In this document: one piece after another, positions 1 to 27,456 of the stretch
How the letters are laid out: every line of letters starts with the position of its first letter
Numbering within the stretch: position 1 is the first letter of the stretch
From: Candidatus Woesearchaeota archaeon
GTDB lineage: Archaea > Nanobdellota > Nanobdellia > Woesearchaeales > JAGVYF01
NCBI GenBank assembly: GCA_018303425.1
Contig: JAGVYF010000003.1
Location: 5,150-69,149 of the forward strand
Direction of reading: 5' to 3'
Length of the DNA stretch: 64,000 bases
Translations under genes and position numbers: made by a program
The notes under the pieces: model-generated
What the model was told of the DNA's origin: nothing
Databases searched by the model: none
The model's input: the letters and a program-made list of their open reading frames with translations, nothing else

Positions 1-1389
1 AGGCTCAAAAGTCCTATTCGCCAAACGTTTGTACCTACGAAATAAATCCAAGATTAAGTTAACAATTTTATCTTTTATATCCTTAATCTGCACAAGTATT
101 TGACTAAAAATGCTTACAACAAAACCGCCGCTTTCTTTTAAGATAATAATAACCTTGTTGGAAATCAGATTTGACCATATAAAGATACTTCTAAAAAGCT
201 CCGATATTCTTGAAAAAACCGCAAATCCTCCAAGAGCTTTGCAAGTTTGAACTTCAGGAATATTAATTTTAGGAATTAACTTTTTAACATTAATTTTAAT
301 ATCTTTAACGTTGTACTTGAAATCCTCTTTTTTATTTTCAACAGTCTTAACAGTATTCCTCTTTAACCTAAACATATCTCTTCTAATATATTTATAAGCT
401 CCTCTAATGACTTTAACTAATAAAAATGACAAAAACCCAAATAACACTTTAAAATCTAAAATGGATTGTTGAATTGCGGGTCTAACAATTAAATAAATTA
501 ATTCTGAAATTGAAAATACCTTATCCATTAAAGGTTTAACCCATAACTTGCAAAATCTTAAAATAATTTCAATAAACCGGATAAACTTATCAAATATTTT
601 GTTAATCTCTGGTTCAGAATTTATTACAGAATTTCGGCTTATTATTAATAAAAAAGATAAAACCAAAAATACAATAAAAAACGATAATGGTCCGTCACGT
701 AAATTATTATAACTCCTATTTGTTAAAATATCGACAACTGACATTGGCGCAACATTCTCTTTAGAAACATTAACATTTAATTCTCTGAAAAATTCAATAA
801 ATTTTGAATTAAAGTTCTCAATCAGATTTTCCCCGGCTAACAATAGAATATTATCAGATTTTAATTCAGGGATACTGCCATTCACCCCGCGTACCCAATC
901 TTTGACAGGTTTATCTATTAAAATAGCATCAATAACTAAATTTCTATCAGCAGATAACTTATTCTGGGTATTAATAAGCGCAATTTTTAATTTATGTACC
1001 CCCAGTCCTAAATCTGTACCAATGTCTCTTTTTATCAAAACTTCATCTTTAGAATACAAGTCATATACAGTTACATTATTATCAAGATAAACCCGAATAA
1101 CTCCTGCGCTTGGTCCTACTTTTAATGCTAATGAAATCACATGTCCTTCAAATTCTACTGATAAGCTAGACCCGGGCTGGTTTGAATAAAGGGCCGACCC
1201 ATCTAGATAATTACCATAAACAGTTGTCCATAACCCTTCCTTGGCGAAATCTAATTCATTTATATCTTTTATAGCAAAATTTGTAATTGTTGCTTGATAA
1301 TACGGGGAATACAGGAACAGAATAGCCAACATAGTAAAAACTAACACAAAGCTAACTTTCATAATCCGCTTATTCGTTTCACTAACCAT
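1..1389 (-). CDS. Membrane protein, N-terminal part of an ORF that runs off the window start (>=460 aa)
   Basis: Minus-strand translation from the ATG at 1389 is open to position 1 with no stop. The N-terminus has a hydrophobic signal/TM segment (MKVSFVLVFTMLAILFL) and a later TM cluster. The ATG overlaps the stop of the upstream gene (ATGGTTAG), which suggests translational coupling. The 902..1090 plus-strand ORF is probably spurious antisense. Confidence 0.45.
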   Translation of the reverse strand, partial: MVSETNKRIMKVSFVLVFTMLAILFLYSPYYQATITNFAIKDINELDFAKEGLWTTVYGNYLDGSALYSNQPGSSLSVEFEGHVISLALKVGPSAGVIRVYLDNNVTVYDLYSKDEVLIKRDIGTDLGLGVHKLKIALINTQNKLSADRNLVIDAILIDKPVKDWVRGVNGSIPELKSDNILLLAGENLIENFNSKFIEFFRELNVNVSKENVAPMSVVDILTNRSYNNLRDGPLSFFIVFLVLSFLLIISRNSVINSEPEINKIFDKFIRFIEIILRFCKLWVKPLMDKVFSISELIYLIVRPAIQQSILDFKVLFGFLSFLLVKVIRGAYKYIRRDMFRLKRNTVKTVENKKEDFKYNVKDIKINVKKLIPKINIPEVQTCKALGGFAVFSRISELFRSIFIWSNLISNKVIIILKESGGFVVSIFSQILVQIKDIKDKIVNLILDLFRRYKRLANRTFEP

Positions 1390-1987
1390 TCTTCTGTAAA
1401 CTCCTCCTATAAATTGTAGAAATTGTAGTTTCGCCCCTGTTTAATTTTTCAGCAATATTTCGATTTGAAAAACCTAAAGATTTTAAATAAAGAACAAGTG
1501 GCCCCAATAGTGAGTCTTTACCTTTAAAAATTAATAAAGGCACATTCAACTCGCTTTTAGTTATAGTAAAAACTTCAGCTTTTCTTTGTTTAGCTTTTTC
1601 ATATGCTAACCAAATACTGCGGTTATCTTTAATTAATAAATCTGAAATCTTCTTATTTGTATTATTTTTATTTTCTCTAAGATATTTTACAAGAGACTGC
1701 AACAAACTTAGCTTTCTCTCAGCAAATATCTCAATAGGCACCAAAATCTCATTTGACATCAAAAGTTTGGCTAAATCGTCAGAACTAATATTAAACTGAT
1801 TCTTAATAATCTCTAAAACTTCGATTAAAACACTTTCTTTCTCATTCTTAATCGTTTCAACAATTTTAAGAACCGCTTTGTTTTTAGCAAATTCAACGGC
1901 AGAAACAGTTTCGTTTTTTTGAGTCTTCAAATTACCTAAAAATTGTAGAATTAATTCTTTTTGTTGAATTTGAGGACTATTTACCAA
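1382..1987 (-). CDS. Putative transcriptional regulator with C-terminal LuxR/GerE-type HTH
   Basis: The C-terminus LKSLGFSNRNIAEKLNRGETTISTIYRRSLQK resembles a LuxR/GerE helix-turn-helix. The ORF is 201 aa. Confidence 0.4.
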   Translation of the reverse strand: MVNSPQIQQKELILQFLGNLKTQKNETVSAVEFAKNKAVLKIVETIKNEKESVLIEVLEIIKNQFNISSDDLAKLLMSNEILVPIEIFAERKLSLLQSLVKYLRENKNNTNKKISDLLIKDNRSIWLAYEKAKQRKAEVFTITKSELNVPLLIFKGKDSLLGPLVLYLKSLGFSNRNIAEKLNRGETTISTIYRRSLQKNG

Positions 1988-2316
1988 AAATTAATCTATT
2001 AAAGTAGTATTAATATATAAAAGTTGCTACTTTAAACTAATTTGGTAGATAAATAATCTATCAAGGTAGTATTAAATATAAGAAACGAGCATTAATCAAT
2101 CAAGACCAGACGCCACCAATGGAGCACATTGGTAGAAAATGTGATATTATGAACCGCCCGCAAGAAGTGAAGCTCCTGCGCACAGAACTTTCAGTTCTTA
2201 TAGAACCAAAGCTAACTTTTGATAAACAAACTTTCTAATTACAAAAGAAATAAAATTTAATATAAAAATGCGAAAATAAAACAGGCCATTGACAAAACTA
2301 TTTCAATGACACATTT

Positions 2317-2721
2317 TTATCTAATGGTAAAAATATTTTTGAGCTTTTTTGGAATACCCTGCAATACCAACAAAGCTAATGGAGCCGCCCAATTTGCCGT
2401 ACGTTCTACAAAATCCCAAATTGGATCTCCGGCGATTGGACGTGACAATGCTGTAGCAAACGCCCACAATACTGCATAGATTAGCACAAGCCTAATCGGC
2501 CAAATAAGCGCCAAAATGGCTACAACTATATCCATTGTTCCAATTATAGGTAGCATTACCCTGGCTGATGATTCAGAAAAACCAAATGCCGTAATAAGTG
2601 GTATCCACCCTTGCTTTATACCTAGCGCAAAAATTCCGTGTCCCAAAAAAGAACCAAATACCCCTATTCGTAAAATCCATTCCGCTATTTTTTGTTGTGA
2701 ATTCATAATACTAAATGTCAA
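2317..2721 (-). CDS. Small integral membrane protein, 4 predicted TM (DoxX-like?)
   Basis: Hydrophobic helices run throughout the 134-aa ORF. The antisense ORF 2516..2725 is rejected. Confidence 0.4.
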   Translation of the reverse strand: MTFSIMNSQQKIAEWILRIGVFGSFLGHGIFALGIKQGWIPLITAFGFSESSARVMLPIIGTMDIVVAILALIWPIRLVLIYAVLWAFATALSRPIAGDPIWDFVERTANWAAPLALLVLQGIPKKLKNIFTIR

Positions 2722-2853
2722 TTAGTGATTCTTTATATATTTTACTGAATTAACATCCAAACCCATTTCACTGAATTTAAGTATCCATATTAATAGACCA
2801 AAGGAAAAACACAATCTATTCAAAAGAGATAAATAAGAAAAAGGTAACAAAAT

Positions 2854-3288
2854 CTAAACTGGAGCCTTTTCCACAGTTTCTACTTTAGGCAGAGGTATAG
2901 GAGAAGGCAGATTTAAATCTCTACTTAGAATAATTGACTGAATATTGCACTTTGCAAGAGCAGTATTTAATACTTGTAAAGTCATTTCTTTTTCAAGATT
3001 TTTATTCTTTTTCCAACCATCTAAAGCTTTTTTAACTTTAACAGCATCTTCCAAGATTAATACTTCCCCCACTAAATCTATATGGGCTAATACATCCTTT
3101 AAATCACTTGCATAATTAACACCATAATCAAAAGTAACTCTTAAACCTGATTGCTTTTCTGTACCTAACTGTAAATCCTTAGATTCAACTTCTTTGATAA
3201 CAATGTTGTTATTTATACTGACTTTACCTTGTAACGCTTTATTTTTTTCAACTACAATTTTATTAAAATTAAATCCTACAACTGTCAT
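2854..3288 (-). CDS. Hypothetical protein
   Basis: A 144-aa ORF with coding-like composition and no recognisable motif. Confidence 0.35.
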   Translation of the reverse strand: MTVVGFNFNKIVVEKNKALQGKVSINNNIVIKEVESKDLQLGTEKQSGLRVTFDYGVNYASDLKDVLAHIDLVGEVLILEDAVKVKKALDGWKKNKNLEKEMTLQVLNTALAKCNIQSIILSRDLNLPSPIPLPKVETVEKAPV

Positions 3289-3381
3289 ATTAAAACCTCC
3301 CTAAACTTTAATCTAAAAAAGCATAATCTAGTATTTAAAGATTTAGATTATATTATAATTGTTATCTAACAAAATATATAA

Positions 3382-3873
3382 ATGCTGAATGCATTAAATA
3401 TATTAATGCTTGAGATATATTTTATTTTAGGACTTTTATCATTTGCGGGCATAATCCTGGGTCTGATATTAGGAATGATTGCTCCAGAAGAATTAAAACC
3501 TGGAGCTCCATGGTTTATCAAATTAAAAAATACAATATTTACATTATTAATATTAATATTATTATATTACAACATTTATAATCTTATAATAATACCATTA
3601 ATTATTTTCTTAATATTATACTGGTACCGAGGAACTTTAGGCGAAGAATCATATATGCTTGAGTATAGTATGATGGGTTCGCTATTTGGAATGGGATATT
3701 ATACCCCCGCCATACCTGAAATAATTGGATTGATTTTTATATATAAAATTACATCAGGAAGTTTGTTAATATACAAAAATAATAATTTCAATTTTTTAAT
3801 AAAATCAATTTGCTTAAGATTAATATTCTATATTTTGGGATTATTATTACCACTTATGTTTGCGAATGTGTAA
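3382..3873 (+). CDS. Hypothetical polytopic membrane protein
   Basis: 163 aa, very hydrophobic and Ile/Leu-rich. It overlaps the 3' end of carS on the opposite strand by about 27 nt. Confidence 0.3.
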   Translation: MLNALNILMLEIYFILGLLSFAGIILGLILGMIAPEELKPGAPWFIKLKNTIFTLLILILLYYNIYNLIIIPLIIFLILYWYRGTLGEESYMLEYSMMGSLFGMGYYTPAIPEIIGLIFIYKITSGSLLIYKNNNFNFLIKSICLRLIFYILGLLLPLMFANV

Positions 3874-4458: not shown

Positions 4459-4604
4459 GTCTCCGTAGCTTAGCGGTGGAGCGTGCGGCTGTTAAATTGG
4501 CGATAAGATTAACTAAAACGTCAATTAAAGAAACCGCAAGGTCCCCAGTTCGAATATTGGCGCCAGATATTTTAGACGCCTGTGAGAAAGTCTGGGCGGA
4601 GACG
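4459..4604 (+). tRNA. tRNA-Asn (GTT) with two introns: 38 nt at canonical 37/38 and ~36 nt in the T-loop (59/60 region)
   Basis: Acceptor GTCTCCG/CGGAGAC. D-stem GCT/AGC. Anticodon stem TGCGG/CCGCA with loop CTGTTA[intron]A. T-stem CCCAG/CTGGG with loop TTCGAAT followed by a 36-nt insert. Discriminator G. CCA is not encoded. Confidence 0.6.
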
Positions 4605-4670: not shown

Positions 4671-4801
4671 GAGCTTGTAGCTTAGCCTGGTGGAGCGCAC
4701 GACTGATAACATTTTGTCAGAGATCGTGAGGTCCGGAGTTCAAATATTAACGCCTGAGGCAAAATGCTTCGAACGTCAGTGAGAAAATCTCCGCAAGCTC
4801 A
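4671..4801 (+). tRNA. tRNA-Ile (GAT) with two introns: 14 nt at 37/38 and ~43 nt in the T-loop
   Basis: Acceptor GAGCTTG/CAAGCTC. Anticodon stem CACGA/TCGTG with loop CTGATA[intron]A. T-stem CGGAG/CTCCG with loop TTCAAAT followed by a 43-nt insert. An oligo-T run follows the gene. Confidence 0.6.
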
Positions 4802-4853
4802 TTTTTTAAAATGATACACAAACTTTATAACAAATTACCCAAAAACTATTCTT

Positions 4854-6395
4854 ATGTCTATAAATATTCCTGAATTATGCAAAGATGCCTATATCAATAT
4901 TGCTTTAGACACTATTAGGCTAGGTAAACAAGCGCTAATTTTTACTAATTCAAAACCTGGCGCAGAAAAAAGCGCAGAAGAAATATCTAAAAAAAATAAA
5001 AATAACGAATTATCTGAACTTTCTGAACAAATCCTAAAAACACTGCCTAAACCGACTAAACAATGTGAAAGATTAGCTAAATGCGTTAAACATGGCATTG
5101 CGTTCCACCATTCAGGTTTGCACCCCAAACAAAAAGAAATAATTGAAAATGCTTTTCGGGACGGCACTATCAAAATTATCGCGTGTACACCTACACTTGC
5201 TGCCGGACTTGATATGCCTGCGTTTAGAACAATATTAAGAGAAGTCAAACGCTACACTAATACTGGCTATAACTGGATTCAAACCCTGGAATATTACCAA
5301 ATGGCTGGAAGAGCCGGACGTCCGGGTAAAGAAGATTATGGTGAAAGTATATTGATTGCCAATGACAAAAAACATTCGGAAGAATTACTTAACAGGTTCA
5401 TTTATGGTTCACCTGAAGACATTTTTTCAAAATTAGCCGTTGAACCTGTATTAAGAACATACATCCTTTCATTAATATCAAGTGGCTTTGTAAATTCAAA
5501 AAAAGAAATTATTGATTTCTTTTCTAAAACATTCTGGGCTTTTCAGTTTAGAGATTTGGATAAATTAATTTTCATAATCGAAAAAATGTTGCGCCTATTA
5601 ATAGATTTTAAATTCATCGAAACTTCAAATACAAATAATTTTTCAAGCATTGATGAGATAAACACAAAATTATACATGGCAACAGCCCTAGGTAAAAGAG
5701 TTGCAGAACTTTACATTGACCCATTAACAGCTAACCATATCCTTAATTGTTTAAGCCGGAACGATAACCCCTCTCCGCTGGGGTTACTACAAATGACATC
5801 GCACACTCTGGAGATGATGCCTTTATTAAAAGTAAAAATGAAAGAATTTGACAGCTACCAAAATGAAATAATTAGATACACTGAAGAATTGCTTGAACCA
5901 GAGCCAACAATCTATGATTATGAATACGACGAATTCCTTAATTCATTAAAAACAGCGCTATTCTTTAATGACTGGATTGAAGAAAATTATGAAGATTATC
6001 TTTTAGAAAAATATAATATTACTCCCGGGGCAGTGCACACAAAATTAACTATACTTGACTGGCTGCTTTATACCTCCGCCGAAATAGCAAACATTGCAAA
6101 TTTAAAATCAAGTATTAAGCACATCAACAAAGTTAGATTTAGGATAAAACATGGAATTAAAGAAGAATTAATTCCTCTTTGCAGATTAAATAATATCAGC
6201 AAGATAAGGGCACGTAAACTTTACAACAACGGAATCAAAGATTTAGGCGATATTAAGAAAGCTAACTTCCAAACATTAATCCAAATTTTGGGAGAAAAAA
6301 TTGCATTAAATATTAAAAGCCAAGTTGGACAAAAAATCGAACCTGAAGTAAAACCAACAAAACGTATTGGGCAGATGGGTTTAACCAAATACTGA
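4854..6395 (+). CDS. Hel308/Ski2-like DNA helicase, C-terminal half only (RecA2, winged helix, ratchet and HhH domains); the N-terminal DEAD/RecA1 domain is absent
   Basis: Motifs IV-VI are present: [51 protein letters not shown]. There is an in-frame stop at 4812 and the tRNA genes lie immediately upstream, so no Walker A/B domain can be encoded here. Confidence 0.65.
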
Positions 6396-7487
6396 TTCAA
6401 GAAAACCTTTTTTATTTTTAACTGTTTTATCAAATTCTTTCAACAAATCTTTCTGTTGTTTATTAAGTTTTGTAGGTATATCTATTACAATTTTAACATT
6501 CTGTGAACCTTTCCCATAGCCTTCTAAATTAGAAATTCCATATTCTTTCATTCTAAAAACAGTATTGCATTGAGTGCCTGCAGGGATAGTTAAGGAAGCA
6601 ACACCTTTCAAGGTTGGCACATCAACATTTGCGCCCATCACAGCCTGCGCATAACTAATAGGCAATTCTAAATAAATATCATCTCCCTCCCTCTTAAAAA
6701 TATCATGCTTTTGAACATTAATATATACATAAAGATCTCCTTTATTTCCTCCATTTATACCTGCTTCACCTTCGTTTTTAACTCTCAATCTCGAACCGTC
6801 ATGTATACCACCTGGAATTTCAATTTCAATCTCTCTTGTATTTCTTACTCTCCCATTTCCGCCGCAATTTGAACACGCTTTGCGAATAGTTTTACCATGC
6901 CCATTACAGTCATGGCAAGTAGATGATTGCGCAAATATTCCAAAAGGAGTTCTAACCTCGCTTTTAATTACACCTGAACCTTGACACAAACGGCAATTAA
7001 TAATATCCGAATCAGATTTAGCGCCAGTACCATGACAACTTTTACATGTTTCCATTCGGGGAATATTAATAGTTTTTTTCTTGCCAAACGCGGCATCTTC
7101 TAAATTGATAGTTATTTCAAATTCAATATCACTTCCCCTAACCGAAGAACTCTTCCTGCGCCTTTTTCCTCCAAATAATCCATCAAACATATCACCCAAA
7201 TCAAAATCAAACCCGAAATTTCCGCCTGAAAACCCTGAAAAATCAAACCCGCCCTGTCCTGAACTAAAATTAGTGTCAGCTGTGCCAAATTGATCATACT
7301 GCTGCCTTTTTTTATCATCACCCAATACAGATGCAGCTTCATTAATCTCTTTAAACTTTTCATCCGAATCACTCTCTTTATTCAAGTCTGGATGATATTG
7401 TTTAGCTAACTTTTTATAAGCCTTTTTAATCTCTTCTTTTGAAGCGTCTTTCCCTAACCCTAAAACTTTATAATAATCTTTGCCCAT
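6381..7487 (-). CDS. dnaJ: Chaperone DnaJ (Hsp40)
   Basis: J domain [31 protein letters not shown] Gly/Phe-rich linker follows. Four CxxCxGxG zinc-finger repeats are present. Confidence 0.9.
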
Positions 7488-8247
7488 TTTTTACACCAAA
7501 TATTTCTAAAATTTCCGATTCACCAGAATAAAGAAGTTCAGTTTTTATATCTGATAAGCCTTGTTTCTCCATATTATAATCCATTTCTCGAGCATAAACA
7601 TCCGCAAACCCTGAACAATTTGCATGTGAAATTAATAGTTTTCCGCCCGGTCTTAATATTCTAATCATATTTTGAAATTTATTCCCCATGTTAAAATCAT
7701 TATATTCATAGTCCCGTTCAACACAAGCAGATTCATGTATCATGTTTGAAACTAGAACCATATCAAATGCCTTACTAAATGGCGCAGCTAATAAATCTCC
7801 TTGGACTATCCCAATATTTTTACATCCATATTTTTTAGCTCTTTTTTCCAATTCTGATAATGCTATTGCTTGAACATCTAAAGCAACAAAATAAGTTCCA
7901 GGATTATTTAATGCAAGATACACTGTTTTAAGTCCAGTTCCTGAACCAACATCTAATACTTTTTCACGCCCTTTAACGCTTTTATCCAGATAAGGAAGAA
8001 TAACTTTCACGTCGCTAGCGCGAAAACAATCAACATTGCCAAACAAATTGCATCCATAAATCAAATTATACATTTCTCTTTCTAAAGGCACTAAATCACC
8101 TGACCTTGAACAAATTAACTTTTCAATTTGTGTCAATCTTTGTTCTACTGCGTCACCCATGCCTTTTTTATTCAAATCAACTAACTCCTCTAATGAAATC
8201 TGTTTAATGCCTTCATTCCCAAAATAATCACTTAGCGATATCGTCAT
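7468..8247 (-). CDS. Class I SAM-dependent methyltransferase
   Basis: Motif [17 protein letters not shown]. The gene sits between dnaK and dnaJ. Confidence 0.55.
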
Positions 8248-8271
8248 AAAAATAAAAATTAAGTAAAGCTA

Positions 8272-10167
8272 TTAAGCTTTACCTTTTTTATCATTTTTAA
8301 CTTTGAAATCTGCATCAACAACTTTTTCGCCTTTCTTTTCACTAAAAGCTTTGCTTCTGCGCCCAGAACCCTGTTCTTGGGCTTTAGATTCAGATTTAGT
8401 TTCGGCATCTTTTTTAGCATGTTGTTCCTGAGCAACTTTTTCGTACATTTGAGTTGCAGCTTCTTGTAAAGGTTTTTGGACTTCTTCAAGTTTTTTCTTA
8501 ATAGCCTCCACATTCTTTTCTTTGGCTTCCATTAACTTCTTTAGTTCCACAATGCCTTTCTTAGCTTCATCAAGTTTAGCTTGGTCAGCCTTCCCTTCCA
8601 TGTCTTTCAAAGTTTTTTCTGATGTGTAAATTAAAGCGTCAGCCTGATTAACAACTTCAACTTCTTCTCTTCTTCTAACATCGGTTTCAATGTTAGCTTC
8701 AGCTTCTTTTCTCATCTTCTCAATTTCTTCCTTTGAAAGATTTGAAGATGCAGTAATTGTAATGTTTTGTTGTTTACCGGTTCCAAGATCTTTTGCAGAT
8801 ACATTTACGATGCCATTTGCATCAATATCAAAGGTAACTTCAATCTGTGGTATCCCTCTTGGTGCTGGAGCAATTCCAACTAACTCAAATCTGCCTAATG
8901 TTTTATTATCAGCTGACATTGCCCTGTCTCCCTGCAATACATGAATACTTACAGCGGGTTGATTATCTGCGGCAGTTGAAAATACCTGTGACTTCTTTGA
9001 TGGAATTGTAGTGTTTCTTTCAATTAACTTTGTAAAAACACCCCCCAAAGTCTCAATTCCCAAATCAAGAGGTGTAACATCAAGTAATAAAACATCTTTA
9101 ACATCTCCCCCTAAAATACCCGCTTGAATAGCTGCGCCTACTGCAACAGCTTCATCGGGATTAACAGATTTATCTCCTTCCTTGCCGGTTATCTCTTTTA
9201 CAATAATTTGTACTGCGGGAATTCTTGTTGAACCTCCAACTAATAATACCTTATAGCCATCACTTGATTCTAAACCAGCATCTTTCAATGCTTTTTCTGT
9301 TGGAGCTTTTAATTTTTCAAGAATTTCTGAGATTAAATCTTCAAATTTAGCCCTGCTCAATTCAGTATTAAGATGCTTAGGACCAGACTGATCAGCTGTA
9401 ATAAAAGGCAAACTAATTGAAGCATTGACTTTTGTGCTTAATTCAATCTTAGCTTTTTCAGCAGCTTCCTTTAATCTTTGCAATGCTACTTTGTCTTCTC
9501 TTAAATCTACGCCATGAGACTTTTTAAATTCCGTTGCTAACCAGTCAATCAAAGCATCATCAATATCATCACCACCTAAATGGTTATTGCCTGAAGTTGC
9601 CTTAACTTCAAAAACACCTTCGCTTATTTCCAAAACAGATACATCAAATGTACCCCCACCAAAATCAAATACTAAAATAGTCTGATCCTGAGTTTTATCT
9701 AAACCATAAGCCAGCGCAGCAGCGGTTGGCTCATTAACAATTCTTTTAACATTCAAACCCGCAATTGCACCTGCGTCTTTTGTAGCTTGTCTTTGCGCAT
9801 CATTAAAATATGCCGGTACAGTAATAACTGCGTCAGTAATTTTAGTTCCTAAATAAGCTTCAGCATCTGTTTTTAATTTTTGTAAAATCATAGCTGAAAT
9901 CTCTTGGGGAGTGTACTCCTTACCCTCAATAATTACTTTGTGATTAGTGCCCATGTATCTCTTAATGCTCCTGACGGTGTTTTCAGGATGAACGATTGCC
10001 TGATTCCTTGCTACTTGACCAACAACTCTTTCACCGTTTTTAATACTAACAACACTAGGTGTAGTCCTAGCACCTTCTGCATTAGCAATAATTGTAGGTT
10101 TTCCGCCTTCCATTACAGCAACAGCTGAAAATGTAGTTCCTAAATCAATTCCTATTGTTTTTGCCAT
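8272..10167 (-). CDS. dnaK: Chaperone DnaK (Hsp70)
   Basis: [24 protein letters not shown] and other Hsp70 signatures. The start is placed at [10 protein letters not shown] (ATG 10167) rather than the longer ORF start at 10239. Confidence 0.95.
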
Positions 10168-10302
10168 TTTTTTCTTGCCTCCATGTGAGTTTATTATCTT
10201 AAATTCAGAATCACTAAAATACAAAAACTTCGAACACAAGTTCAGAGGTTTTTGTCATTTTAATTTCTTCCTTATGAATTCTTATCTTCTCATTGTAATT
10301 AA

Positions 10303-10692
10303 TTAACCGAGATACCTAGGAAATTCTCCAGTTTTACCCTCATTCCCTGAATTCTCACTCTTTAATTTTGGTTTTTCCTTTCGAGTCTCCTTTTCCATTT
10401 GTTTTATTGCTTTGGATTTCTCAATTTTACCAAACCTTTTTTCATATTTTTGGACCATGCCTGCCAATACTTCAGCTACTTGTTTTGCATGATAAGGTTC
10501 AAGCATTACGATATTATGTTTTAACTGCATAACTCTTGACCCATCATTTGTTCTAGGATCTATTCTTGGCGTTACACATCTAAAGTCAAATATGAATTGT
10601 GATGGATTAAAATTAATTGACATATCATGGCTAAAAAATGGTTCACCTTCTACAATTGAAAATTTAATTTGTTGTTCTTTTTGTTCTGTCAT
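10303..10692 (-). CDS. Hypothetical protein (DUF3467-like), in the dnaK operon
   Basis: 129 aa with a lysine-rich C-terminus. It lies between grpE and dnaK. Confidence 0.35.
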   Translation of the reverse strand: MTEQKEQQIKFSIVEGEPFFSHDMSINFNPSQFIFDFRCVTPRIDPRTNDGSRVMQLKHNIVMLEPYHAKQVAEVLAGMVQKYEKRFGKIEKSKAIKQMEKETRKEKPKLKSENSGNEGKTGEFPRYLG

Positions 10693-10702
10693 ATTTTTAC
10701 CT

Positions 10703-26152: not shown

Positions 26153-27286
26153 TTAACCTAGTACTTTCATAAAATCAGTTTCTTCTTCTTCACATTTAAC
26201 TTTGGTTACGGCGCTAAAAAAATCTTCTTTTCCAACTTTGCCCCGATTATCACGAATAGCGAAATATCCTGCTTCAGTACATACAGATTTAATCTCTGCG
26301 CCTGAAAATCCATTCATTAACATCGCAATTTCGGCAAGATCCACAGACTTATGTAATTTGATATTCTTTGCATGAATCTTTAATATTTCATATACCCCAG
26401 CATCATCTGGATTAGGAACCTCAATTAACCTGTCAAGTCTTCCTGGACGAAGAATTGCCGGATCAAGAATATCCATCCTATTGGTGCACCCTATAACTTT
26501 CACATTACCTAAATTTTTAAACCCGTCAAGTTCAGCTAAAAACTGCATAAATGTTCTTTGTACTTCTCTTTCCCCGGAGGTACCAAGCTCAACCCTCGTA
26601 GCAGCTAATGCATCAATTTCATCAATAAATATAATTGTTGGTGCTTTCTCTTTTGCTAACTGAAATATTTCTTTCACAAGCTTAGCTCCTTCACCAATAA
26701 ACTTTTGCACTAATTCAGAACCCACAATTTCAATAAATGTTGAATTTGTACTTGCAGCAACTGCTTTAGCAAGTAAAGTTTTCCCTGTTCCGGGAGGGCC
26801 ATAAAGTAATATTCCTTTAGGCGGCGTTATACCTATTTTCTTAAAAAGCTCAGGTTTTAACAACGGCAATTCAATAACTTCTTTAACTTCTCTTACTTCA
26901 TTATATAATCCCCCAACTTCATCCCACGAAGTTGTTGGTTTTTCCATAATAACAAATTTTTCTACATTAAACTTTTTATTATTGTCAAGCTTGCTTATAA
27001 CAGTTAAATTCTTTTGCTCAACTAAAACCGAATCACCAGATAAAAGTTTGGGGCAATCAGATGCAATATTGACATGAAACATATTGCCGTTAGGAATTTT
27101 AATAACTGCATTGCTGCCGTTAATCTCCCTAATTTCACAAACCATTAAAGGATTTTGTCTATATCTATCTAATTCATTTTTCAACTGAGAAACAGTTTCT
27201 CGTAAAATTCTGTTTTCTTGTTCTAACTGATTAGTTTCAGCAGTATATGTATACATGATTTTTGAAATTTCATCTTGAGTTGTCAT
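26153..27286 (-). CDS. pan: Proteasome-activating nucleotidase (AAA+ ATPase)
   Basis: N-terminal coiled coil and OB segment. A single AAA module with GPPGTGKTLLAKAVA, DEIDA and the second region of homology. Confidence 0.8.
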   Translation of the reverse strand: MTTQDEISKIMYTYTAETNQLEQENRILRETVSQLKNELDRYRQNPLMVCEIREINGSNAVIKIPNGNMFHVNIASDCPKLLSGDSVLVEQKNLTVISKLDNNKKFNVEKFVIMEKPTTSWDEVGGLYNEVREVKEVIELPLLKPELFKKIGITPPKGILLYGPPGTGKTLLAKAVAASTNSTFIEIVGSELVQKFIGEGAKLVKEIFQLAKEKAPTIIFIDEIDALAATRVELGTSGEREVQRTFMQFLAELDGFKNLGNVKVIGCTNRMDILDPAILRPGRLDRLIEVPNPDDAGVYEILKIHAKNIKLHKSVDLAEIAMLMNGFSGAEIKSVCTEAGYFAIRDNRGKVGKEDFFSAVTKVKCEEEETDFMKVLG

Positions 27287-27456
27287 ATTGCCAGCCTTGA
27301 TTTAGTATATTAAAAGAGATGTATTTTTAAATGTTTCTTATAATTCTTAAAATTTATTAAAATAATCTATAAATGATTATTTTCTGAATATATAACAAAT
27401 ATCCCATCATTAAGATAAAAACCAAATAATATTAATAAAAATTTATTTAAAATCTC

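Follow-up and report, generated by a model that had tools for sequence, protein, structure and literature searches.

The C-terminal half of a Hel308-type helicase in Woesearchaeota and its probable partner, a separately encoded RecA1 protein

The 64,000-nucleotide stretch of DNA analysed here, referred to as the window, comes from contig JAGVYF010000003.1 of a Candidatus Woesearchaeota archaeon and carries, at positions 4854–6395, an open reading frame (ORF) for the last two-thirds of a Hel308-type helicase, without the first motor domain, RecA1. Judged by its sequence and that of its relatives, the ORF is very probably functional, encoding the larger subunit of a Hel308 that is split over two genes throughout the lineage and whose subunits would assemble non-covalently. 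The smaller subunit is represented by a family of stand-alone RecA1 proteins of about 220 residues, which end where the C-terminal halves begin. An earlier note on the window, made from the letters alone, had raised the possibility of a split gene with its halves encoded apart; this is supported by the two abutting families of C-terminal halves (C-halves) and RecA1 proteins (N-halves), members of which occur together in one metagenome-assembled genome (MAG).

Domain content and conservation of the C-terminal half

The product of the ORF comprises a Helicase_C domain followed by a winged helix and the ratchet, all of which are detected by Pfam (Table 1), and no DEAD/RecA1 domain is found in it by Pfam. 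In the phmmer comparison with the Protein Data Bank (PDB), residues 15–503 match Pyrococcus furiosus Hjm only from residue 228 onward, up to residue 711 (E 1e-85), and residues 27–492 match Archaeoglobus fulgidus Hel308 at 245–683 (E 1e-78). The helix-hairpin-helix (HhH) domain scores below its Pfam cut-off in this protein; the region aligns to domain 5 of both Hjm and Hel308, and the cut-off is passed by the relatives P0121 (27.9 bits) and P0128 (30.3 bits). The earlier claims that only the C-terminal half of Hel308 is encoded, and that it extends from motif IV through the winged helix and the ratchet to the HhH domain, are upheld, for the HhH domain by the alignment. The ORF covers positions 225–708 of the 739 positions of the NCBIfam profile NF002654 with 444.7 bits, below the equivalog cut-off of 887, and it also remains below that of NF040935 (helicase_Hel308; 302.4 vs 1200 bits); the fused DPANN relative P0151, with 725.5 bits, likewise stays under the NF002654 cut-off. 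The best Foldseek matches of the AlphaFold (AF2) model are Hjm/Hel308 (E ~1e-25), and the winged helix and ratchet are modelled with high confidence, apart from a brief dip at residues 261–269.

The reading frame cannot be extended upstream, as had been stated: an in-frame TGA is located at 4812–4814, 14 codons before the start codon, and translation of 4785–4883 reveals no alternative ATG, GTG or TTG start between this stop and position 4854. If the sequence or the assembly were wrong ahead of position 4854, an N-terminal domain could be hidden from such an analysis, a caveat already present in the earlier note. However, the upstream 400 bp are occupied by two well-formed tRNA genes, an independent ENA assembly (L003) yields an identical protein with the same start, and the same architecture recurs in ninety related loci from independent assemblies, so that we regard such an error as practically out of the question.

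A search of 5.8 billion proteins with the C-half returned 3334 matches at E ≤ 1e-20, the best 120 of which were inspected. These are 52–100% identical to the query and 347–578 residues long, most of them 500–530; Helicase_C and domain 4 are present, PF00270 is found in none, and where names are given, the proteins are called ‘helicase-related protein’ or ‘hypothetical protein’ and belong to Woesearchaeota/Nanoarchaeota MAGs. In an alignment of 23 C-halves taken from these 120, the mean column identity is 65%, the N-termini agree within a few residues, and motifs V and VI follow the consensus TPTLAxG..PA and Q..GRAGRP, respectively. Neither frameshifts nor internal stops are found in the C-half gene. 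At the genome level, species-representative genomes contain at least 583 matching stretches, and the architecture was checked in the best 80, which were retrieved with their flanks. In 90 of 91 loci, i.e., the window and 90 related ones, the frame is closed by a stop no more than 133 codons (median 9.5) ahead of the counterpart of window residue 1, and the lone exception is interrupted by a contig end. The closest fused relatives (P0140, P0151 and P0153; 46–49% identity) are DPANN Hel308 proteins of ~730 residues, which fits a fission inside the lineage. The fission is very probably derived and common to a large Woesearchaeota/Nanoarchaeia lineage, and no accident of the window locus. Additionally, more divergent, GC-rich C-half-only proteins (P0154, P0157, P0159, P0251 and P0260; 38–44% identity) have their initial Met at the same point, and the split may therefore extend past Woesearchaeales. 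Short proteins that begin in the middle of RecA2 (P0167, P0181, P0201 and P0215) were considered as another architecture and rejected, since they are mostly fragments at contig ends.

The C-half gene has elements of its own at both ends. A TATA-box-like TTTATAA lies upstream of it, ending 23 nt before the ATG, and points to a separate promoter for this gene and to a nearly leaderless mRNA; the bacterial promoter and terminator scan was uninformative for an archaeon. At the other end, a motif of the form Q-x-x-[LIV]-x-x-[YFW], resembling the PCNA-interacting peptide (PIP) box, occurs in the C-terminal tail of all 23 aligned C-halves, 0–3 residues from the end, and the fused relatives P0140 and P0153 also end with a PIP-box-like tail. 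An interaction between Hjm and PCNA is known, and the tail GQMGLTKY is suggested to be a putative PCNA-binding site.

Two further observations were made on this family. The segment P-T-K-Q-C-E-R-L-A-x-C (residues 67–77, nt 5052–5084) contains two cysteines, C71 and C77, which are invariant in 23 of 23 C-halves; the pair is also present in the fused DPANN relatives P0140, P0151 and P0153, with A. fulgidus having the second cysteine only and P. furiosus neither. Furthermore, inteins (Intein_splicing and LAGLIDADG_3) are inserted in the motifs of two C-half-only relatives, namely motif V of P0121 (1040 residues; TPTL|C...HN|SAG) and motif VI of P0128 (996 residues; EYEQM|C...HN|CGRAGRPG). Among the 150 best cluster representatives, about 30 have lengths of 890–1700 residues and probably contain inteins as well.

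Stand-alone RecA1 proteins and the break point

When cluster representatives were searched exhaustively by HMMER with the C-half, C-half-only proteins and fused relatives were returned. A profile for the N-terminal half was then built from the first ~225 residues of these fused relatives, and its top 120 matches are almost all 219–227 residues long, contain PF00270 only, and are 50–59% identical to the N-terminus of P0140. The members of this family are annotated as ‘DEAD/DEAH box helicase [Candidatus Woesearchaeota archaeon]’. A search with one of them, P0368, gave 4777 matches at E ≤ 1e-20, the top 120 of which are all 220–274 residues in length. Rather than being fragments at contig ends, the N-halves are complete genes that lie inside contigs as long as 408 kb. 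Among 25 aligned N-halves, the Q motif, motif I (TPTxSGKT), motif Ia (VPxxALAxEK), motif Ib (TxEKxDSLxR), motif II (DExH) and motif III (SAT) are invariant.

The two families complement each other exactly. When aligned on the fused relatives, N-halves finish at ...WRPVKLxKGxYxxGEIEF(x) and C-halves open 0–5 columns later; these points correspond to A. fulgidus residues ~220 and ~224–227, respectively, with neither overlap nor gap, and alignment to full-length Hel308, which the earlier note had suggested as the way to the break point, does locate it. On NF002654, the N-half occupies positions 5–217 (283 bits) and the C-half positions 225–708 (445 bits), and the summed scores of the halves equal that of the fused P0151. 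The start of the ORF had been placed in the linker before RecA2; it is found instead ~20–25 residues inside domain 2, past the RPVxL β-hairpin, which stays with the N-half. With the boundary of domain 2 reported for A. fulgidus Hel308 in the paper on structure 2P6R, the break lies ~20 residues into the domain.

The question arises of how two such halves could be brought together. Protein trans-splicing by a split intein would join them after translation into a single-chain Hel308, and it would be in keeping with the inteins that are common in the C-half family, where they occupy motifs V and VI of relatives. It also has a precedent in DPANN archaea, since the halves of Nanoarchaeum equitans PolB are joined by a split intein. 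However, the N-halves are ~220 residues long and end in ...GEIEF(D/Y/E), without an N-intein of ~100 residues starting with Cys or Ser, and the C-halves open 10–25 residues before the first RecA2 helix, without a C-intein of ~35 residues ending in HN followed by Cys, Ser or Thr; moreover, the junction residues are variable. As no intein fragment is found at the end of the N-half or at the start of the C-half, the halves would have to associate non-covalently, and trans-splicing is considered highly unlikely.

A different explanation dispenses with the partner. The C-half could stand alone in a new, ATP-independent role, e.g., as a PCNA-tethered DNA-binding or fork-recognition factor that acts through its winged helix, ratchet and HhH domains, in which case the ~220-residue RecA1 proteins would not be an obligate partner; the good conservation of the C-terminal domains and of the PIP-like tail agrees with such a role, as does the fact that the two genes are never neighbours and lie in different, partly conserved contexts. 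However, motifs IV, V and VI are invariant, and the arginine finger of motif VI (QxxGRAGRP) acts only on ATP bound to RecA1, so that such invariance would be surprising in a protein that had no ATPase partner. The N-half family, in turn, ends exactly at the start of the C-half, tracks the same taxon at similar abundance, and retains 20 residues of domain 2 that would be without a role on their own. A stand-alone C-half is, on balance, decidedly improbable.

In the favoured two-gene Hel308, the C-half would supply most of RecA2 with motifs IV, V and VI and the arginine finger, along with the strand-separating hairpin region and domains 3–5 (winged helix, ratchet and HhH), and the ~220-residue N-half would supply RecA1 (Q motif, Walker A, Ia, Ib, DExH and SAT) together with the first β-hairpin of domain 2. 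The subunits, expressed from separate genes that apparently each have their own promoter, would assemble non-covalently. In the resulting heterodimer, the motif VI arginines of the large subunit would lie opposite Walker A and DExH of the small one, and the ATP site would be located at the interface. With the hairpin that it keeps, the small subunit would probably donate a strand that completes the RecA2 sheet and helps to lock the subunits together. The assembled complex, if it has the predicted ATPase and helicase activity, would be an ordinary 3′–5′ Hel308-type repair/fork helicase that docks on PCNA, probably via the conserved C-terminal Q-x-x-L-x-x-Y tail.

A bolder proposal is that the fission turned Hel308 into a regulated, switchable two-component motor, with assembly as a control point that has no counterpart in single-chain superfamily 2 (SF2) helicases. 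In such a motor, the C-half might be parked on PCNA or forked DNA, held there by the winged helix, the ratchet and the HhH domain and by the PIP-like tail, and stay inert until the free RecA1 subunit docks, and the small RecA1 subunit might serve other RecA2-type partners too. We consider this extension unlikely.

Genomic separation of the halves and the locus in the window

The two halves are encoded apart, never within 10 kb of each other. Both were found in MAG GCA_016185915.1 (JACPMP01), with the N-half P0368 on contig JACPMP010000092.1 and the C-half L033 on contig JACPMP010000044.1, and the GC contents of these contigs match (34.2% and 35.4%). Accessions were obtained for five N-halves (MBI2650793, 2652669, 2655980, 2656593 and 2657431) and three C-halves (MBI2654390, 2660118 and 2663967) in a series of groundwater Woesearchaeota proteins with consecutive accession numbers; they fall 600–3800 numbers apart, a spacing that would agree with each genome having about one copy of either half. 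P0368 and L033 are the sole match of MAGs: by accession comparison, the N-halves P0344, P0337, P0386 and P0290 come from MAGs other than those of the C-half loci examined, and P0384 (DUGW01), P0466 (JACPJQ01) and P0436 (CAZUWB01) come from MAGs without a C-half locus in the set examined. Two candidate same-contig pairs were rejected, P0291/P0085 (both 6042 bp) as a coincidence, and the contigs of 99,180 bp and 99,008 bp because they belong to different organisms.

Several observations weigh against the two-gene helicase. The N-half is absent from the window by tblastn with real N-halves and by motif scan; similarly, tblastn detected no N-half within the 1.28 Mb that surround 91 C-halves, nor any C-half within the 167 kb that surround 22 N-half places; these places correspond to about five distinct N-half proteins or organisms, several of them sampled repeatedly. 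No pair of halves was found on one contig, and co-occurrence in the same genome is known from one binned MAG, in which the halves are on different contigs. As the halves are never adjacent, operon structure offers no argument for co-regulation. The subclade to which the window belongs (P0003, P0005 and P0008; 62–77% identity) stands somewhat apart from the main group, and N-halves of this subclade were not specifically identified. Finally, AF2 models the C-half on its own with confidence outside residues 114–169 and 181–195; in these residues, the motif V–VI part of RecA2, the predicted local distance difference test (pLDDT) score is below 50; the low scores fit an absent partner, but could equally reflect the shallow alignment of 23 sequences. 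The genome from which the window derives presumably also encodes an N-half.

Additional searches gave the following results. Walker A together with DExH was found in no ORF in six frames of the window except that of an AAA ATPase at 26156–27301. The N-terminus of A. fulgidus Hel308, the sequence of which is a 100% match to PDB 2P6R, was used as a RecA1 query in tblastn and gave no match in the window and 83 related loci, where the positive control worked. An N-half from the 311-kb contig of the C-half locus L017 is absent among the top 120 matches of the P0368 search. In a viral contig collection, the DNA patterns for DExH..SAT..RPV and PTxxGKTLxAE recovered only fused Ski2-like helicases from giant viruses and others, none of them split or close.

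The position of the C-half gene, 52 bp downstream of two tRNA genes (Table 1), bears on the other explanation offered in the earlier note, according to which a full-length Hel308 was cut by integration or rearrangement at the tRNA genes and the ORF is a decaying remnant. Such genes are classic targets of integration, and the locus is indeed rearranged in comparison with a 62%-identical relative. However, the same truncation and start point are shared by 90 related loci with unrelated upstream genes; the upstream neighbours include genes for a 495-residue protein (L001) and for PKD-domain proteins (L275 and L281), and no tRNAs. Since the upstream genes vary between lineages, the break is unrelated to the tRNAs in the window. 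Additionally, the frame is intact, the catalytic motifs are invariant, and the gene is identical in the independent assembly. The traces of integration that had been envisaged near the tRNAs did not appear either: there is no second copy of the 3′ end of tRNA-Asn or tRNA-Ile in the 64-kb window, and none of the five ORFs that were scanned on the upstream side of the tRNAs has an integrase domain. A decaying remnant is thus scarcely credible, and truncation at this site is refuted for practical purposes.

The tRNA pair itself is real, and tRNA-Ile ends where it had been placed before. Both genes carry two introns, one in the anticodon loop (~4496–4533 and 4710–4723 for tRNA-Asn and tRNA-Ile, respectively) and one in the T-loop (~4556–4591 and 4746–4788). 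Because of these introns, the unspliced tRNAs are missed by ARAGORN, and the Rfam tRNA model reaches only 17 bits on the intron-containing tRNA; standard tRNA counts would therefore run too low for the source genome.

On the downstream side, a convergent DnaJ gene (6381–7487, minus strand) overlaps the 3′ end of the C-half gene by 15 bp (6381–6395), and a methyltransferase gene (7468–8247) lies between DnaJ and DnaK in the window. The C-half gene and the DnaJ–DnaK–DUF3467–GrpE genes are syntenic between the window (4854–10700) and L001, the locus of the 62%-identical relative on a 1.0-Mb contig, and the upstream side of this block differs between the two. A topoisomerase–ABC1–ADK–TruD–oxidoreductase block, which in L001 is situated a few genes upstream of the C-half block, is found at 27.6–37 kb in the window.

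The neighbourhood of the N-half is likewise partly conserved, as seen in the loci L263/L264, L283, L282 and L292. Upstream are genes for GINS, L44e, S27e, eIF2-alpha, Nop10, PAC2 and enolase; downstream and convergent are those for SRP54, prefoldin and PRPP synthase, with archease and RtcB instead in one lineage. None of the N-half neighbourhood genes is present in the window. In the N-half P0271 (274 residues, 1.4-kb contig), the motif II–III segment DEIHLLND...AEWLNADL is duplicated in tandem, which is probably an assembly artefact. Furthermore, two proteins close to the split family, P0273 (389 residues, 12-kb contig) and P0375 (378 residues, 65-kb contig), are fused RecA1–RecA2 proteins that end just past motif VI (GRAGR); their ends may mark a second break point, between the motor and the winged helix, ratchet and HhH domains, or a gene-calling artefact.

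Table 1. Coordinates of the C-half gene, its domains and motifs, and the adjacent tRNA genes in the window
Feature	Nucleotides	Residues	Strand	Evidence
tRNA-Asn(GTT)	4459–4604			ARAGORN after manual intron removal
tRNA-Ile(GAT)	4671–4801			ARAGORN after manual intron removal
TTTATAA, TATA-box-like element	4824–4830		+	Read from sequence
C-terminal half gene of the probable split Hel308 helicase	4854–6395		+	ATG start, 513 residues plus stop
Motif IV region	4926–4970	25–39	+	Q26, F30, K34, A37, E38 and K39 invariant in 23 C-halves
Helicase_C		71–158	+	Pfam, 46 bits
Motif V	5187–5222	112–123	+	T112, P113, L115, A116, G118, P122 and A123 invariant in 23 C-halves
Motif VI with arginine finger	5298–5327	149–158	+	Q149, G152, R153, A154, G155, R156 and P157 invariant
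Winged helix, domain 3 (HTH_61)	5340–5621	163–256	+	Pfam, 27.6 bits vs cut-off 24.3
Ratchet, domain 4 (Helicase_dom4_arc)	5778–6155	309–434	+	Pfam, 98.7 bits, E 2.9e-28, above cut-off
Helix-hairpin-helix, domain 5 (HHH_5)	6180–6320	443–489	+	Pfam, 19.5 bits, below cut-off 27
Tail GQMGLTKY, PIP-box-like Q-x-x-[LIV]-x-x-[YFW]	6369–6392	506–513	+	G506 and Q507 invariant

Comparison with single-chain Hel308 and with other split genes

Domains 2–5 of the C-half, the last of them placed by alignment, have the same order and content as those of the archaeal Hel308/Hjm structures from A. fulgidus (2P6R), P. furiosus (2ZJ2) and Sulfolobus solfataricus (2VA8), which it matches at E 1e-70 to 1e-85 with about 30–34% identity, and the N-half and C-half families jointly hold all motifs I–VI. 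However, the characterised Hel308/Hjm enzymes are single chains of 690–720 residues, whereas here the chain is cut at ~220–225, with RecA1 and RecA2 on separate polypeptides from unlinked loci. The closest full-length relatives are the fused DPANN Hel308 proteins P0140, P0153, P0151, P0143 and P0155 (714–738 residues), which are 43–49% identical to the C-half. The N-terminal part of P0140 is 50–59% identical to the N-halves and 83% identical to a protein annotated as Aenigmatarchaeota. The Q-x-x-L-x-x-[YF] tail of the C-half recurs in at least P0140 and P0153, and the segment P-T-[KE]-Q-C in P0140, P0151 and P0153. In these fused proteins, a single gene links, by a short variable stretch at ~220–225, what Woesearchaeota have as two proteins.

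The way in which the halves are annotated has consequences beyond this locus. C-halves are named ‘helicase-related protein’ or ‘hypothetical protein’ and N-halves ‘DEAD/DEAH box helicase’, and both score below the Hel308 equivalog cut-offs; surveys of DNA repair in DPANN archaea could thus wrongly score Hel308 as absent or degraded, in spite of the strong constraint on both halves. Moreover, a natural SF2 helicase with its ATP site split over two polypeptides, and kept so across a broad radiation, would provide a ready system to study the coupling of RecA1–RecA2 closure to the ratchet, and to ask what holds both lobes together without a covalent linker.

Waters et al. reportedly listed in 2003, among the split genes of N. 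equitans, those for reverse gyrase, alanyl-tRNA synthetase, topoisomerase I and a ‘large helicase-related protein’. The split reverse gyrase is cut between its helicase and topoisomerase modules, in contrast to the split Hel308, which is cut inside the helicase motor, between RecA1 and RecA2, such that the ATP site would be formed in trans. In other respects, the split genes of N. equitans and other DPANN archaea represent the same phenomenon, in which an information-processing enzyme of a reduced DPANN genome is encoded as two unlinked genes with products that have to associate. Split information-processing genes, e.g., for reverse gyrase, tRNA synthetases and Dph1/2, have been recognised in some DPANN archaea, and the splits of N. 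equitans are reported to be restricted to a few very reduced genomes (PMC6349945). No mention of a split Hel308 in DPANN archaea was found in the searchable literature, which includes two works of 2024, one surveying the Ski2-like helicases of archaea (PMC10946056) and the other studying archaeal families with fusions and fissions (PMC11237513). Compared with the splits of N. equitans in few genomes, that of Hel308 spans a large and diverse lineage, as seen in the best 80 of the at least 583 matching stretches. Split Hel308 would thus join the known class of DPANN split genes, and it is less usual in two respects, namely its predicted composite ATP site and the age and stable inheritance of its fission. 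In reviews, the split genes of DPANN archaea are portrayed as having arisen late and in a few very reduced genomes, whereas the fission of Hel308 appears to be old and spread over hundreds of species with genomes of ~1 Mb, which indicates that gene fissions can become fixed and persist for a long time.

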